Below are positions 14,838 through 19,545 of a stretch of 42,132 nt of DNA, piece by piece. This DNA comes from Escherichia phage megetsur: the sequence record MN850608.1. One strand, written 5' to 3'. Numbering within the stretch: position 1 is the first letter of the stretch; every line of letters starts with the position of its first letter. The notes beneath the pieces are model-generated. The model did no database searches. It had not been told where the DNA came from and was given only the letters and a program-made list of their open reading frames with translations. Position numbers and translations under genes: made by a program.

Positions 14838-15330
14838 CGGCACGCTGGCCGATGGCCGTTGGCGTTTACACCTGCTGCCTCCACCGGAGCGTCGGCACCT
14901 TGATGAAGCGTGGGCCGAGTTCAACTTGGCTGGCGCTGACGACCCTGCGTTTCAGGACACGATTGATATTGTGAACGCTCTGGCCCTCACGTATCGCATT
15001 ATCATCCTGACCGGACGCGGAGCCGTGGCCCGTGAAGTAACCGAGCAGTGGCTCGACGAAGCTGGTGTGGTTTACGACAAACTAATCATGAGAGAGATTG
15101 GCGACTGCCGTAAAGACACAGAGATGAAGCTGGCGGCGCTGGAGGACATTGGCATTGAGAACATCGTGTGTGCTTTCGACGACCTGCCGCACATCGTTGA
15201 CTTCATGCGTGGCCTCGGCATCACGGTCTATGAAGTGACTCGCTATGAGGATAACCATGAGTATGTTCATGCCAATGCTAAATACGATGGCGCTGATTCT
15301 AAGGTCGATGGAGGTAAGGCGAATGGGTAA
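14803..15330 (+). CDS. HAD-superfamily phosphatase (polynucleotide 3'-phosphatase-like)
   Basis: DLDGTLAD motif near the N-terminus; ATG 14803 with GAGG 9 nt upstream. Confidence 0.55.
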   Translation: MHMKDTVVVDLDGTLADGRWRLHLLPPPERRHLDEAWAEFNLAGADDPAFQDTIDIVNALALTYRIIILTGRGAVAREVTEQWLDEAGVVYDKLIMREIGDCRKDTEMKLAALEDIGIENIVCAFDDLPHIVDFMRGLGITVYEVTRYEDNHEYVHANAKYDGADSKVDGGKANG

Positions 15331-15901
15331 GAAAGGTCAGAAGTTTATCTTAGACCCGGCACGCAACTGGGGTACTGGCACGCTGCTGAGCGACATTGCT
15401 GAGCAAGGTATCATCCTGACGTACGACGAACCGTACGATGTGCCGAATGACAGCCGCGATTACTACACCTGCGTGAAGGATGGCAAGACCCACACTCTGG
15501 TACTGGAGCCATTCGAGGTGAAAGAAGTTGAGACTGCATTCATCCCGGTTGACCCGTACGACCCGGCCAGTGATGTTGAGGTGGCCGTGGCCAAGAGTGC
15601 CGGGCCGGGAGGTATGAAGTTCGACGGCGGCAAGCCCCGCATGTCACTGCTGTTCGATGGCTGCCCGAATGCACTGGAGGCTGTAGCCAGCGTGCTCACC
15701 TTCGGCGCTGAGAAGTATGCAGCCCACTCGTGGCAGACTGTGCCGGAAGGTGAGGAACGCTACAAGTCAGCACTGCTCCGTCACCTGACGGCGGTGGGTA
15801 AGGGTGAGGAACTGGATAGCGAATCCAACCTGCACCATCTGGCGCACGCTGCGTGCAATGCGCTGTTCATTCTGGAACTCGAATTAAGGAAACGCAAATG
15901 A
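15323..15901 (+). CDS. hypothetical protein; C-terminal all-alpha domain possibly nucleotide pyrophosphohydrolase-like
   Basis: ATG 15323 with GGAGG 7 nt upstream; the domain assignment is from memory and tentative. Confidence 0.4.
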   Translation: MGKKGQKFILDPARNWGTGTLLSDIAEQGIILTYDEPYDVPNDSRDYYTCVKDGKTHTLVLEPFEVKEVETAFIPVDPYDPASDVEVAVAKSAGPGGMKFDGGKPRMSLLFDGCPNALEAVASVLTFGAEKYAAHSWQTVPEGEERYKSALLRHLTAVGKGEELDSESNLHHLAHAACNALFILELELRKRK

Positions 15902-16104
15902 GTGTTTTACTTTGGATTGTAGCTGTGGTATGGTTTGCCCTGTTCTCTGTTGTCTGGCTGCGTGTGACCAGTACAACAAGACACACGTTGACAGGTCTGG
16001 TGCAGCAGGATTTATCCTGTGGGTATTCTTGGCTGTCATCCCTGCTATTCTGTTTGCCTGTCTTGCGTAGGAGATTGTATGAGTCGTTATCAAAGAGCCA
16101 TTGA
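15898..16104 (+). CDS. small membrane protein (68 aa), two hydrophobic segments
   Basis: ATG 15898 with AAGGA upstream; hydrophobic LLWIVAVVWFALFSVVWL and SWLSSLLFCLPVL, then RRRL. Confidence 0.4.
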   Translation: MSVLLWIVAVVWFALFSVVWLRVTSTTRHTLTGLVQQDLSCGYSWLSSLLFCLPVLRRRLYESLSKSH

Positions 16105-16393
16105 CGACACGGTGGTTGACCATAAAGTGTGTGGTGCCTGCATGGGTAGCGGCACCTACCGTGGCATGTTGATTGGTGGGCAGGTAGTCCTGATGGATTG
16201 CGAAGCCTGCGGCGGTACGGGTACGAATGACCCGACACTGCAACATTCTGTACTGAGTGACTTAGGCCAGCGCAAACAAGCGCAGCCGGGATATGACGAG
16301 CCGGGCAAGCCATCATACGGCGTAGGTCTCGTTGAGCAGTACGCCGAAGACGGCAAGCTGATTGAGCACCTGAGCAAACAAGTTAAGGAGTAG
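16079..16393 (+). CDS. DnaJ-type zinc-finger protein (CxxCxGxG repeats)
   Basis: CGACMGSG and CEACGGTG; ATG 16079 with AGGAG upstream. Confidence 0.5.
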   Translation: MSRYQRAIDDTVVDHKVCGACMGSGTYRGMLIGGQVVLMDCEACGGTGTNDPTLQHSVLSDLGQRKQAQPGYDEPGKPSYGVGLVEQYAEDGKLIEHLSKQVKE

Positions 16394-16395
16394 TC

Positions 16396-18828
16396 GTGGA
16401 TTTACTTGCAGAGCAGATTCGACTTGAAGAAGAAGCGCGAGCCAGACACCGCGAGGGCTGGCTGGATAATATCAAAGAGGCGATGGCCAGTGGCCGCGCC
16501 GGGTCGGTGCCGTTGCTCCAGCGTATGATGGTTGAGGCTTATCCTCTGGTCGAAGCTGCGATGCAAGAAACCCTGAGCGAAACGACCCGTGGATATGGTG
16601 CGCAGTACCGGACGTACATGCGTGAGATTGGCACCAAAGCGTGTGCCTCTCTCGCACTGAGCATGGCGGTGTCCGGTGCTGCGTCGGAGCAGGCGGTACT
16701 GAGTCTGCTCAAGAGCATGGGCAAGGCACTGATGGCTGAGGTGGTGTATCTCCGGGCGAAGCAGACCGGGCCACAGCAGGCGGCGTACATGGAGCGCGTT
16801 AAGCAGGACGTGAAGAAGTCTCGCTCGAAGTCAGCGAACCACGTCTACAACAAAGCGCGTGCGTCGGCGGCGAACGTTGGGGTAGAGATTGATGTGCTGC
16901 CGCAGCGTGCGCTGATTACCATTGGCAAGCTGATGATGAAGTGCGTCGAGCCAACTGGTCTGGTGTCCACGATTCGCGTCGGCGGCAACCAGCGCCAGCG
17001 CGGTACGGCACACTTCGCACTGCACGAAGATGTGCTGGCTACGATGAACGACTGGCTGGACATGCCGCGTGCTGATGGCATGTGCTGCCCACCGCTGATT
17101 ATCCCACCGAAGCAGATTGCCCCGAACGGTCGCAGCGGTATGTGGCATTCCGATGGGCAGGCAGCGATGTACCGGGTCATGAGTCGCATGAACCACAAAG
17201 GGTATCGTGCATTGAACGTTGACCCGACCCCCGTTATAGAGCCGTGTATGATGCTCAGCAGCGTTCCGTACCGAGTTAACCCAATGGTACTGGAGTTCCT
17301 GCGAACGAACCGTACAGGCGTTATGGGGCTGCCTGTGCCACCCCGTGAGCCTACACTTCCGTTCACCATCCCCGCTGGTGTGAGCTTTGCACAGTACATC
17401 AGCAAGTTCCCACCAGAGATGCAGCAGCAGATGGATGCCGAAGCTCACGAGTACAAGGTGAAGACTCGCTTGTATTACAATGAGTTGCGTAAGTTCACGT
17501 CGCAGATGCTGGCGTTGAATGGTGCAGTCAAAGAGGCAGACAGGTATGCGCAGTACGATAGGATTTATCTCCCGACTTACGCCGATACGCGGGGCCGAAT
17601 TTATTATTCTTCGACCCTTAACCCTCAGTCTATCGACGCGGTGCGAGCGCTGCTTGAGCTTGCGGAACCAGTGGCTCTCGGAACTGAGGGGCTGTTCTGG
17701 CTCAAGGTTCATGTTGCGAATTGTTTCGGATATGACGCAACAGACTTCGACGACCGGGCGGCGTGGACGGACAAGACACTCCCCCGACTACGTGAGGCGT
17801 GCCGTCTTCCAGAGGCATTTGATTCGTTCTGGTCAGAAGCCGATAGCCCTATCAGCGCGTGGGCTGCCTCTGTTGAACTCATTCGCGCTATCGACTCAGG
17901 AAGTCCTGAGACTTATCCCTGCCGAGTGGTTACGCAATGGGACGCTACCTGTTCAGGATTACAGCACCTCAGTGCGATGCTACGAGATGAAGTTGGCGGT
18001 GCTGCTGTCAATCTTATCAATAGCGTGGGAAGAAAAGCAGACATATATCTCAAGACGGCAGCAGCGGCGATGCAGGCTCTTGAAGATAGTGAGGCGCAGT
18101 CACCGACGCAGATGGGTACGTGGCTTGTTTCAATCGGCATTGTCCGGGCGATGGCTAAGAAGCCAGTGATGACCTACGTGTACGGGGCAACCCGGCACGG
18201 TATGGTGGACTACTACTGCCTGTATCTGCGAGAGAACCGGGTCAAGCTGCCGGACGGCAAGAGCCTGCTGGAGTGTGCGCAGTTCATCGCAGAGTTCATG
18301 TGGAATGCAATCCCTCGCGTTGTGCCGAAGGCGGCAGAGCTGATGGCATGGTTGCAGGCTATCGCGGTTGAGGCGGCAGCCAACGGCGAGTACGTGGAAA
18401 TCATTGCACCATCAGGGTTGCGGGTGGTTAACCTGTATCAAGCCAGCAAGGAGACGATGCTCAACAACATCAACCTCATGGGTATCCACAGCATTAAGCT
18501 GCGCGAGTATCTGGACAAGCCGGACGGTAGGAAGTGTGCCGCTGCGATTGCTCCGAATTTCGTACACGCCATGGATGCCAGCCACATGATGAAGGTGTTG
18601 TGGGAGATGTGGAATAACGGGGTGTACATGGTGTCCATCCACGACTCGTTCGGGGTGGCGGCTGCACATGCCGGGTTACTCCACAAGGTCATTCGTGAAA
18701 AGTTCGTACAGATGTATGAGCAACATGACCCAATTCAACAACTTGCTGTACGATACAATGCTGTTGCACCTGAACGGGGCAATCTGGATATCCAGCTTGT
18801 GAAACAATCAAGCAAGTTTTTCTGCTGA
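16396..18828 (+). CDS. single-subunit DNA-dependent RNA polymerase (T7-type)
   Basis: DATCSGLQHLSAMLRDEVGGAAVNL and HDSFGV match T7 RNAP catalytic motifs; GTG start with AAGGAG upstream. Confidence 0.95.
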   Translation: MDLLAEQIRLEEEARARHREGWLDNIKEAMASGRAGSVPLLQRMMVEAYPLVEAAMQETLSETTRGYGAQYRTYMREIGTKACASLALSMAVSGAASEQAVLSLLKSMGKALMAEVVYLRAKQTGPQQAAYMERVKQDVKKSRSKSANHVYNKARASAANVGVEIDVLPQRALITIGKLMMKCVEPTGLVSTIRVGGNQRQRGTAHFALHEDVLATMNDWLDMPRADGMCCPPLIIPPKQIAPNGRSGMWHSDGQAAMYRVMSRMNHKGYRALNVDPTPVIEPCMMLSSVPYRVNPMVLEFLRTNRTGVMGLPVPPREPTLPFTIPAGVSFAQYISKFPPEMQQQMDAEAHEYKVKTRLYYNELRKFTSQMLALNGAVKEADRYAQYDRIYLPTYADTRGRIYYSSTLNPQSIDAVRALLELAEPVALGTEGLFWLKVHVANCFGYDATDFDDRAAWTDKTLPRLREACRLPEAFDSFWSEADSPISAWAASVELIRAIDSGSPETYPCRVVTQWDATCSGLQHLSAMLRDEVGGAAVNLINSVGRKADIYLKTAAAAMQALEDSEAQSPTQMGTWLVSIGIVRAMAKKPVMTYVYGATRHGMVDYYCLYLRENRVKLPDGKSLLECAQFIAEFMWNAIPRVVPKAAELMAWLQAIAVEAAANGEYVEIIAPSGLRVVNLYQASKETMLNNINLMGIHSIKLREYLDKPDGRKCAAAIAPNFVHAMDASHMMKVLWEMWNNGVYMVSIHDSFGVAAAHAGLLHKVIREKFVQMYEQHDPIQQLAVRYNAVAPERGNLDIQLVKQSSKFFC

Positions 18829-18854
18829 TAAATAGTGATATGTATCATTGACTT

Positions 18855-18877
18855 AAATGAAAGTGTCTATAGTGATA
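18855..18877 (+). promoter_or_regulatory. copy B of the conserved element ATGAAAGTGTCTATAGTGATA; candidate phage-RNAP promoter ahead of the late genes
   Basis: Exact 21-mer also present inverted at 40536-40556; contains CTATAG; followed by palindrome GTGATA-GA-TATCAC (18872-18885). Confidence 0.4.
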
Positions 18878-18938
18878 GATATCACGCTACCGGTAGCCCC
18901 GTCAGTGGCGGGGGTTGCTGCCACTAAGAGAGGATTGT

Positions 18939-19125: not shown

Positions 19126-19545
19126 ATGAAAGTGTCTACTATGGGAAATACATCACACACGACGATGCCACTCGACATTCGCCGTGCTGTGGCCGAAGGC
19201 ATTCAAGCTGAGCGGCCATGGTCAGACCTATCTCCCGATGTGATTGTTGACAGCATGTATGAGGCCACCGCCTCCGGTTGCGTTGACGTTTACATCACTG
19301 ACGATGACGGCAGCCTAATGGCTGTTGCTCACATCGGCAGGTTATTCGATATTCATGTGGGCGAGATGGTGGTCGTTATGGCCTCATACGTCTGGCCCCA
19401 GTACAGAAACCGTGGAGTGATGCGTGCCATCCTCCGTGTACTCAAAGACGTGGCCCGTTCAGCGGGTGTGCGTTGGTGCGGTTACTCCCATATGGTGCGG
19501 CCTTACGTTCAGGAGTACCGCTTCATTGATTTGGAGAAACCGTAA
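19126..19545 (+). CDS. hypothetical protein, possibly GNAT-like acetyltransferase
   Basis: Degenerate acetyl-CoA-binding-like motif WPQYRNRGVMRAIL; its first 15 nt repeat the promoter-like element. Confidence 0.35.
   Translation: MKVSTMGNTSHTTMPLDIRRAVAEGIQAERPWSDLSPDVIVDSMYEATASGCVDVYITDDDGSLMAVAHIGRLFDIHVGEMVVVMASYVWPQYRNRGVMRAILRVLKDVARSAGVRWCGYSHMVRPYVQEYRFIDLEKP

Follow-up and report, generated by a model that had tools for sequence, protein, structure and literature searches.

What does a small protein with a DnaJ-type zinc signature do directly in front of a phage RNA polymerase gene? The question is raised by the genome of Escherichia phage megetsur (MN850608), a phiKMV-like Bonnellvirus, which we analyzed whole (42,132 nucleotides [nt]; here called the window). 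An initial annotation of this DNA had pointed out a 104-amino-acid (aa) open reading frame (ORF) with two CxxCxGxG repeats, located between a small membrane gene and the gene for the phage RNA polymerase (RNAP), and had suggested a chaperone-like factor or a host takeover protein. We found that the small acidic protein encoded by this ORF is genuine and kept by selection; we call it the zinc-ribbon protein after the single Cys4 zinc ribbon in its conserved core. We tentatively propose that the protein may target the host's transcription apparatus when phage transcription takes over.

A conserved zinc-ribbon protein encoded before the phage RNAP

The gene and its parts, with the coordinates of the window, are as follows.

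16069 to 16073, plus strand: Shine-Dalgarno sequence AGGAG of the zinc-ribbon gene, read from the sequence, 5 nt upstream of the ATG and arranged the same way in relatives
16079 to 16393, plus strand: zinc-ribbon protein gene, 104 aa, megetsur_33 (QHR70523.1), ATG at 16079 and TAG at 16391 to 16393, with its conserved core at aa 1 to 76
16130 to 16153, plus strand: first zinc knuckle, CGACMGSG, aa 18 to 25, with C18, C21, G23, and G25 invariant
16199 to 16222, plus strand: second zinc knuckle, CEACGGTG, aa 41 to 48, with C41, C44, G45, G46, T47, and G48 invariant
16232 to 16306, plus strand: family-specific helix and QPGY motif, aa 52 to 76, with L54, V58, L62, and G63 nearly invariant and R65, P70, and Y72 invariant
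16307 to 16390, plus strand: variable C-terminal tail, aa 77 to 104, with an amphipathic helix (aa 89 to 103) predicted at its end

No CxxCxGxG match other than the two knuckles occurs in any of the six frames of the window; 200 shuffles gave a mean of 0.42 per window. In an alignment of 16 homologues, the four cysteines and their flanking glycines do not vary; the full set of invariant residues is M1, C18, A20, C21, G23, G25, C41, A43, C44, G45, G46, T47, G48, R65, P70, and Y72, and D10, E42, L54, V58, L62, and G63 are nearly invariant. The ratio of nonsynonymous to synonymous substitution rates (dN/dS) is 0.12 to 0.44 for homologue pairs with unsaturated dS and 0.14 to 0.37 for the pairs that include megetsur. 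The ORF and the paired repeats of the initial annotation are thus real. All members of the family are acidic (pI 4.5 to 6.7), so protein binding fits the family better than DNA binding does. Two antisense ORFs (15867 to 16316 and 15884 to 16246) were dismissed because all genes of the genome lie on the plus strand and dN/dS favors the plus-strand frames.

The core consists of an N-terminal helix, the Cys4 zinc ribbon, a conserved helix, and the invariant R..QPGY. Strands are predicted between the knuckles at residues 26 to 32 and 35 to 41, and low-confidence AlphaFold2 (AF2) models place a helix at 3 to 11, a hairpin at 26 to 41, and, in both models, a helix at 52 to 68; the model of the full protein adds a helix at 89 to 103. 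The helix and QPGY stretch (aa 52 to 76) is likely a partner-binding surface. Beyond the core, relatives with near-identical sequences have the tail exchanged for one ending in PTE (77-aa forms) or for acidic tails. Cores that are >90% identical (P0031, P0037, and P0039) come either with the 77-aa form, ending in QPGYDEPTE, or with the 104-aa form. Because near-identical cores carry two alternative C termini, the tail is an exchangeable module.

Next, we considered what kind of zinc module the core contains. The presence of two knuckles, four invariant cysteines, and a hairpin between them defines a single zinc ribbon of the DnaJ type, and zinc binding is predicted on that basis. The Pfam family DnaJ_CXXCXGXG matches 16 of the 16 members, each below the gathering score (best E value, 4e-5); the megetsur protein scores 19.5 to 20.3 bits against a cutoff of 32.7 and aligns with profile positions 15 to 52 of 65, in the middle of the domain. 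In a profile-profile comparison (hhalign), residues 16 to 50 fell on DnaJ repeats 2 and 3, which form zinc center II, with 92% probability and 38% identity over 34 columns; the DnaJ side of this comparison was a 67-residue stretch of the Escherichia coli DnaJ central domain, fragments of which agree with the 1EXK alignment. Residues 13 to 51 fell on residues 113 to 154 of lambda Q with 82% probability (E value, 1e-5; 39 columns). A profile search of the PDB gave a best E value of 0.096, with DnaJ and Ydj1 as the top, nonsignificant matches; lambda Q (7UBJ) was matched over the same stretch as in hhalign at an E value of 0.62, and UvrA zinc modules were matched at E values of 0.24 to 0.75. The DnaJ-type signature named in the initial annotation is therefore borne out, and the ribbon, two CxxCxGxG knuckles joined by a beta-hairpin, is the same module as DnaJ zinc center II and the lambda Q arm.

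The signature had also been thought unusual for a stand-alone phage protein, a view that does not hold. The protein matches PHROG 6060 (E value, 4.6e-15) over the full length of the profile (protein residues 1 to 63 against positions 1 to 61 of 61), and the module also occurs in the lambda Q arm and in HMO-2011-type DNA polymerases. The family of small phage zinc-ribbon proteins of the DnaJ/Q-arm type is thus already catalogued, under a name that is probably misleading: PHROG 6060 and the RefSeq records of J8-65, Lidtsur, LIMEzero, and LF82-23 are labeled "anti-termination protein Q-like." The most likely source of the label is the resemblance of the zinc ribbon to the lambda Q arm. It rests on the zinc-ribbon motif only and should not be taken as a function. 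With no Q body, J domain, second zinc center, or DnaJ C-terminal domains, the protein is neither Q nor DnaJ; judged by its sequence, it consists of one zinc ribbon that stands alone between flanks specific to the family. The Pfam lists of the 16 members contained no P2 Ogr/Delta or DksA/TraR-type family at an E value of ≤1.

The family is confined to podophages of the Bonnellvirus/Waewaevirus type, including LIMEzero-type phages. The gene was found by tblastn in 21 phage records; phmmer over 1.84 billion representative proteins gave 6 relatives, a profile search over 5.8 billion proteins gave 16 clusters, and a scan of IMG/VR gave 7 loci. All of the hits come from 41- to 44-kb podophages of Escherichia, Enterobacter, Kosakonia, Cronobacter, and Pantoea, and the phmmer, profile, and IMG/VR searches yielded no link to any characterized family. 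We found no functional study of the gene in the literature. The exact 104-aa sequence is also filed under Enterobacter bugandensis (WP_065365837.1), and BHUENT7 and SS-2025, whose genomes are 98% identical to that of megetsur, were isolated on Enterobacter; these records suggest that bacterial assemblies contain phage contigs or else that the phages infect more than one genus.

The phage RNAP gene lies directly downstream in every locus examined, at a spacing that ranges from a short overlap to 9 nt. In megetsur, it starts with a GTG at 16396, 2 nt past the zinc-ribbon stop, and has its own Shine-Dalgarno sequence (AAGGAG, 16385 to 16390) inside the end of the zinc-ribbon gene. In the "phages" collection, the 21 records with an RNAP identity of ≥70% all carry the zinc-ribbon gene, and the next RNAPs, at ≤34% identity, are without it; this drop in identity marks the Bonnellvirus/Waewaevirus RNAP lineage as sharply isolated from other Autographiviridae. 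The two genes have not codiverged, because zinc-ribbon identity to megetsur stays flat at 60 to 67% in relatives whose RNAP identity varies from 70 to 91%. For instance, the forsur group has 90.5% RNAP identity and 61% zinc-ribbon identity, and J8-65 has 76% and 67%, respectively.

A proposed role at the switch from host to phage transcription

Our functional proposal draws on gene order, for which three further genes are needed.

15323 to 15901, plus strand: dATP/dGTP diphosphohydrolase-like (dGTPase-like) gene (Pfam dGTP_diPhyd_N, E value of 5.7e-33; BLASTP to phiKMV gp25, E value of 1e-11), with its start set from the annotated starts of relatives
16396 to 18828, plus strand: single-subunit phage RNAP, 810 aa, GTG start (Pfam RNA_pol, E value of 6e-83)
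19126 to 19545, plus strand: GNAT acetyltransferase, a homologue of phiKMV/LUZ19 Rac (gp28) (Pfam Acetyltransf_1; BLASTP to phiKMV gp28, E value of 5e-9)

Megetsur and phiKMV have in common a block that runs from a dGTPase-like gene through one differing gene to the RNAP gene, a small ORF, the GNAT gene, a virion protein gene, and the portal gene. The dGTPase-like, RNAP, and GNAT genes are homologous and in the same order in the two phages; the GNAT gene marks the downstream limit of the block and serves here as context. In phiKMV, the differing gene encodes Gp25.1, a 48-aa protein of the Gp2 type whose C-terminal domain binds the beta' subunit of host RNAP and shuts off host transcription, and the GNAT protein is Rac, which sets off cleavage of the alpha subunit of host RNAP (PMC7552054). 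ORF36 of LIMEzero is listed as a Rac homologue in the same study (PMC7552054). Because the GNAT protein at 19126 to 19545 is homologous to phiKMV gp28, bonnellviruses may also use Rac-type host shutoff. We found no Gp2-like ORF in megetsur; in an hmmsearch with a five-member Gp2 profile against 751 ORFs of the window, the best E value was 0.39.

Two further occupants of this position are of note. The Gp2-like gp36 of phage LKA1, encoded upstream of the RNAP (locus L018, 544 to 735), has a Cys-rich N-terminal extension that begins MSECLSCLRGPGCC and contains CLSCLRGPGCC, and the N-terminal domain of LUZ19 gp25.1 measures about 70 aa. Occupants of the slot before the RNAP are modular in build, and metal binding is possible for some of them.

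On these grounds, we consider it possible, at a confidence short of even, that the zinc-ribbon protein acts on the host transcription machinery as the phage takes over. Its synthesis would fall in the middle phase, when the gene string that also includes the phage RNAP is expressed. The zinc ribbon and the conserved helix/QPGY surface would then bind a host protein, most likely the multisubunit host RNAP, and this binding would help to hand transcription from the host RNAP to the phage RNAP. An unrelated fold would thereby fill the role that the Gp2-like Gp25.1 has at the same genomic position in phiKMV. A more specific version, which we regard as doubtful, is that the protein represents a new zinc-dependent class of host RNAP effector that displaced a Gp2-type inhibitor; its Q-arm-like ribbon would be the part that docks on RNAP, at the beta' zinc-binding domain or at a different surface, and the protein would shut off or reprogram host transcription alongside the Rac-like acetyltransferase. 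Should the synteny-based guess of an action on host RNAP be right, Bonnellvirus-type coliphages would provide a small inhibitor or modulator of E. coli RNAP with a new structure, useful as a probe of that enzyme and as an example of the nonhomologous replacement of Gp2.

Several points weigh against an action on host transcription. What ties the protein to host RNAP comes down to synteny and to one function of a widely used zinc module. Position in the slot is a weak predictor, because other phiKMV-like genera hold unrelated genes there, such as a DNA methyltransferase gene in phiKDA1 and the gene for a helical 70-aa protein in RSB3. Nor does lying next to the RNAP gene, or being coupled to it, set the zinc-ribbon gene apart, since megetsur genes are tightly packed throughout the genome. 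Homology to Gp2 was rejected (hhalign probability, 0.06%), and the zinc-ribbon protein does not match the Gp2 profile, which has a beta-beta-alpha-beta fold and the conserved pattern EA..LAE.E.G...GRV. The AF2 models were of low confidence (predicted local distance difference test scores of 54 and 62), and fold searches were uninformative.

Other roles would account for some of the same observations. The protein could serve host takeover or antidefense through a target outside transcription, either as a decoy or modulator of DnaK/DnaJ that mimics zinc center II or as an inhibitor of a different host protein, in the way that anti-TRAP acts on TRAP. We judge this rather unlikely. Small size, acidity, fast evolution, restriction to one clade, and a variable tail are typical of phage proteins that target host factors, the best local similarity is to DnaJ zinc center II, which is needed for DnaK to lock onto substrates, and 12 of the 16 members have weak matches to Anti-TRAP (PF15777; best E value, 1.4e-3). 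However, no particular target has positive evidence behind it, the Anti-TRAP similarity is not significant by profile comparison, and the gene sits among the middle genes by the RNAP and not in the early host takeover block of megetsur at 0 to 5 kb. Partnership with the phage RNAP itself, as a holdase for folding or assembly, as a cofactor for specificity or processivity, or as a negative regulator like T7 lysozyme, also seems unlikely. The conserved arrangement of stop, 2 nt, and start would keep both genes coexpressed, the adjacency is invariant in all loci, including those with saturated dS, and in the "phages" collection the distribution of the zinc-ribbon gene coincides exactly with this RNAP lineage; moreover, DnaJ-type zinc fingers can act as holdases, as DnaJ zinc center I and plant BSD2 do. 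Yet T7-type single-subunit RNAPs are generally autonomous, the codistribution is simply that of the phage clade, tight packing is the rule across the genome, and the discordant divergence of the two proteins in the forsur group and J8-65 speaks against a tightly coadapted interface. The synteny with phiKMV would likewise favor host takeover through host RNAP over an RNAP chaperone, and the chaperone idea finds no support in any defining feature of DnaJ except one zinc center.

It is also conceivable, if quite improbable, that the protein is an accessory of the upstream replication, repair, and nucleotide genes, comparable to the insert of HMO-2011-type DNA polymerases or to the UvrA zinc module. 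The zinc-ribbon gene stands at the end of a DNA metabolism block (exonuclease, endonuclease VII, Mre11-like exonuclease, PNK-phosphatase, and dGTPase), those polymerases share the two-motif module (PMC9038755, PMC6918029), and UvrA is among the weak PDB matches. These similarities, however, are all at the level of motifs and nonsignificant, the acidic pI speaks against DNA binding, and the membrane gene, where present, separates the zinc-ribbon gene from the dGTPase-like gene and never from the RNAP gene. A true Q-type antiterminator, which would load onto host RNAP and allow readthrough of terminators into the RNAP and late genes, is highly improbable. The PHROG 6060 and RefSeq labels and the hhalign match to lambda Q point that way, as does one weak Pfam match (Antiterm, PF03589, the only Q-family hit at an E value of ≤1, in 1 of the 16 members at 0.18). 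But the hhalign match covers only the 40-residue arm, the helix-turn-helix (HTH)-bearing four-helix body has no counterpart in the 76-residue core, the protein is acidic, and the late genes presumably depend on the phage RNAP for their transcription. Terminator-like sites around the gene are not enriched (4 found versus 4.8 expected), and neither these nor promoter-like sites exceed the shuffle expectation between 13000 and 20000.

The neighboring membrane gene and the genome setting

Upstream of the zinc-ribbon gene lies the small membrane gene, which the initial annotation had described as a two-helix protein in translational linkage with it. In megetsur, this gene has the following parts.

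15898 to 16104, plus strand: small membrane ORF as read in megetsur, 68 aa, megetsur_32 (QHR70522.1), with codons 1 to 19 (first transmembrane helix [TM1]) in the conserved frame and codons 20 to 68 out of it
15951 to 15956 (about), no strand: site of a 4-bp deletion, where seven near-identical genomes have TGTCTGTC and megetsur has TGTC, which shifts the frame after codon 19
15955 to 16070, plus strand: remnant of the conserved membrane gene frame, still open to a TAG at 16068 to 16070 and cut off from its start codon

The genomes that carry TGTCTGTC include mellemsur, HHU8, Ec1-ASingh, SS-2025, BHUENT7, and an IMG/VR contig. Their intact allele encodes 58 aa (MSVLLWIVAVVWFALFSVVCLAACDQYNKTHVDRSGAAGFILWVFLAVIPAILFACLA) with two strong transmembrane helices and stops at the TAG equivalent to 16068 to 16070. 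Versions of 59 to 62 aa with two transmembrane helices in the same frame are present in altidsur, aldrigsur, forsur, RZ4, Kc261, and several metagenomic contigs (dN/dS, 0.19 to 0.48), and invariant residues of the protein include Y27, H31, G36, G39, W43, A47, V48, and P50. Because relatives keep this ORF of 58 to 62 aa, the conserved gene is one for a protein with two transmembrane helices and the megetsur copy is frameshifted. In an alignment with nine intact homologues, the remnant holds the loop C.xYN..H....AG and the second helix (TM2) GF..W..LAV.P, its frame 3 translation ending in LAACDQYNKTHVDRSGAAGFILWVFLAVIPAILFACLA before the stop. The second hydrophobic stretch of the 68-aa product reaches a Kyte-Doolittle peak of 1.46, versus 2.85 for the true TM2, and the product is thus predicted to keep TM1 and to lose the true TM2. 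Among about 15 billion proteins, no other clusters with the 68-aa sequence. The deletion is a putative slippage event on a tandem 4-mer. Programmed frameshifting was rejected, since the site is not slippery, the seven near-identical genomes are intact, and the difference is a 4-bp deletion in a tandem repeat.

The linkage between the two genes therefore stands for relatives, in which the stop codon of the intact membrane ORF and the Shine-Dalgarno sequence of the zinc-ribbon gene share bases, but not in that form for megetsur, where the frameshifted 68-aa ORF runs 26 nt into the zinc-ribbon gene. The membrane gene is missing from J8-65, LIMEzero, LF82-23, and two IMG/VR relatives, so the two genes need not occur together. 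In LF82-23 (locus L002, 3699 to 4013), it is cleanly deleted between two ATGAGT start contexts, which fuses the zinc-ribbon start to the ATGA overlap with the dGTPase-like gene. The small membrane protein belongs to no Pfam, PHROG, or NCBIfam family, and its homologues occur only in the same phage clade. Taken together, these results make the gene a conserved yet dispensable accessory neighbor and megetsur_32 a frameshifted allele of it, inactivated by the 4-bp deletion.

The genome as a whole is 98% identical to those of Escherichia phage mellemsur and related Bonnellvirus phages (Autographiviridae/Autoscriptoviridae, Stentvirinae). Its gene order is phiKMV-like, with early genes followed by DNA metabolism genes, the RNAP gene, and then structural and lysis genes. 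The longest ORF of the dGTPase-like gene begins at 15245 and overlaps the PNK-phosphatase gene by 86 nt; the start annotated in relatives is the equivalent of 15323. The stop codon of the dGTPase-like gene and the start codon of the small membrane ORF overlap in an ATGA. This gene also matches PHROGs 5033 and 2252, labeled "endolysin; inhibits RNA polymerase," which looks like a mispropagated name of the T7 gp3.5 type. After the RNAP gene, an 86-nt gap (18829 to 18914) contains the inverted repeats GTGATATGTATCA and TGATAGATATCAC and a CCCCG/CGGGG hairpin, and a putative phage-specific promoter is annotated at the matching position in LIMEzero. The gap may be the first promoter of the phage RNAP or a regulatory site.

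Comparison with Gp2, DnaJ, lambda Q, and anti-TRAP

Gp25.1 of phiKMV and LUZ19 and Gp2 of T7, which inhibit host RNAP at the beta' jaw, occupy the same slot, between the dGTPase-like gene and the phage RNAP gene, and, like the zinc-ribbon protein, all are small and acidic. Gp2 has no zinc site, whereas one is predicted for the zinc-ribbon protein.

With DnaJ zinc center II (Pfam PF00684; PDB 1EXK and 1NLT), the protein shares the consensus knuckle C-x-x-C-H-G-S-G and a beta-hairpin of similar length between the knuckles. However, it has two of the four repeats and therefore one zinc center instead of two, it is without the J domain, the G/F region, and the C-terminal substrate-binding domains, and its flanking helices and QPGY motif have no counterpart in DnaJ. 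The Pfam DnaJ J domain gave no match at an E value of ≤0.1 or of ≤1, and the 104 residues contain no HPD. Pfam DnaJ_C gave no match, and NCBIfam DnaJ_bact scored 13.4 bits against a cutoff of 377. Membership among type I J proteins was rejected given the lack of a J domain with HPD, of four repeats, and of DnaJ_C; apart from its one zinc center, the protein has none of the features by which a DnaJ-type chaperone is defined.

The arm of lambda Q is a zinc ribbon (residues 114 to 152; PDB 7UBJ to 7UBN) whose CRDCHGTG and CGRCKGVG form the same two-knuckle arrangement. In Q, this arm contacts the zinc-binding domain of RNAP beta' as well as DNA, and the four-helix body with its HTH binds the QBE, sigma region 4, and the flap-tip helix (PMC9388147). 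The zinc-ribbon protein differs from Q in being acidic and one third of its size and in having no four-helix bundle, no HTH, and none of the N- and C-terminal segments that form the RNA exit nozzle. Membership in the lambda Q family was rejected on this ground, as the arm is matched and the body is not. If the proposed action on host RNAP is correct, the ribbon of the lambda Q arm and DnaJ would work here as a free-standing RNAP-docking unit.

HMO-2011-type phage DNA polymerases carry the module of two CxxCxGxG motifs as an insert (PMC9038755, PMC6918029). The textbook case of a free-standing module is anti-TRAP of Bacillus subtilis (RtpA, PF15777), a stand-alone protein of ~50 to 100 residues with one DnaJ-type zinc center, to which the similarity is weak. 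Membership in its family is unsupported: all matches are below threshold (13.1 to 13.8 bits for megetsur against a cutoff of 32), and hhalign gave a probability of 27%. The two proteins differ in hairpin length and come from unrelated hosts and contexts. Anti-TRAP works by binding and blocking another protein.

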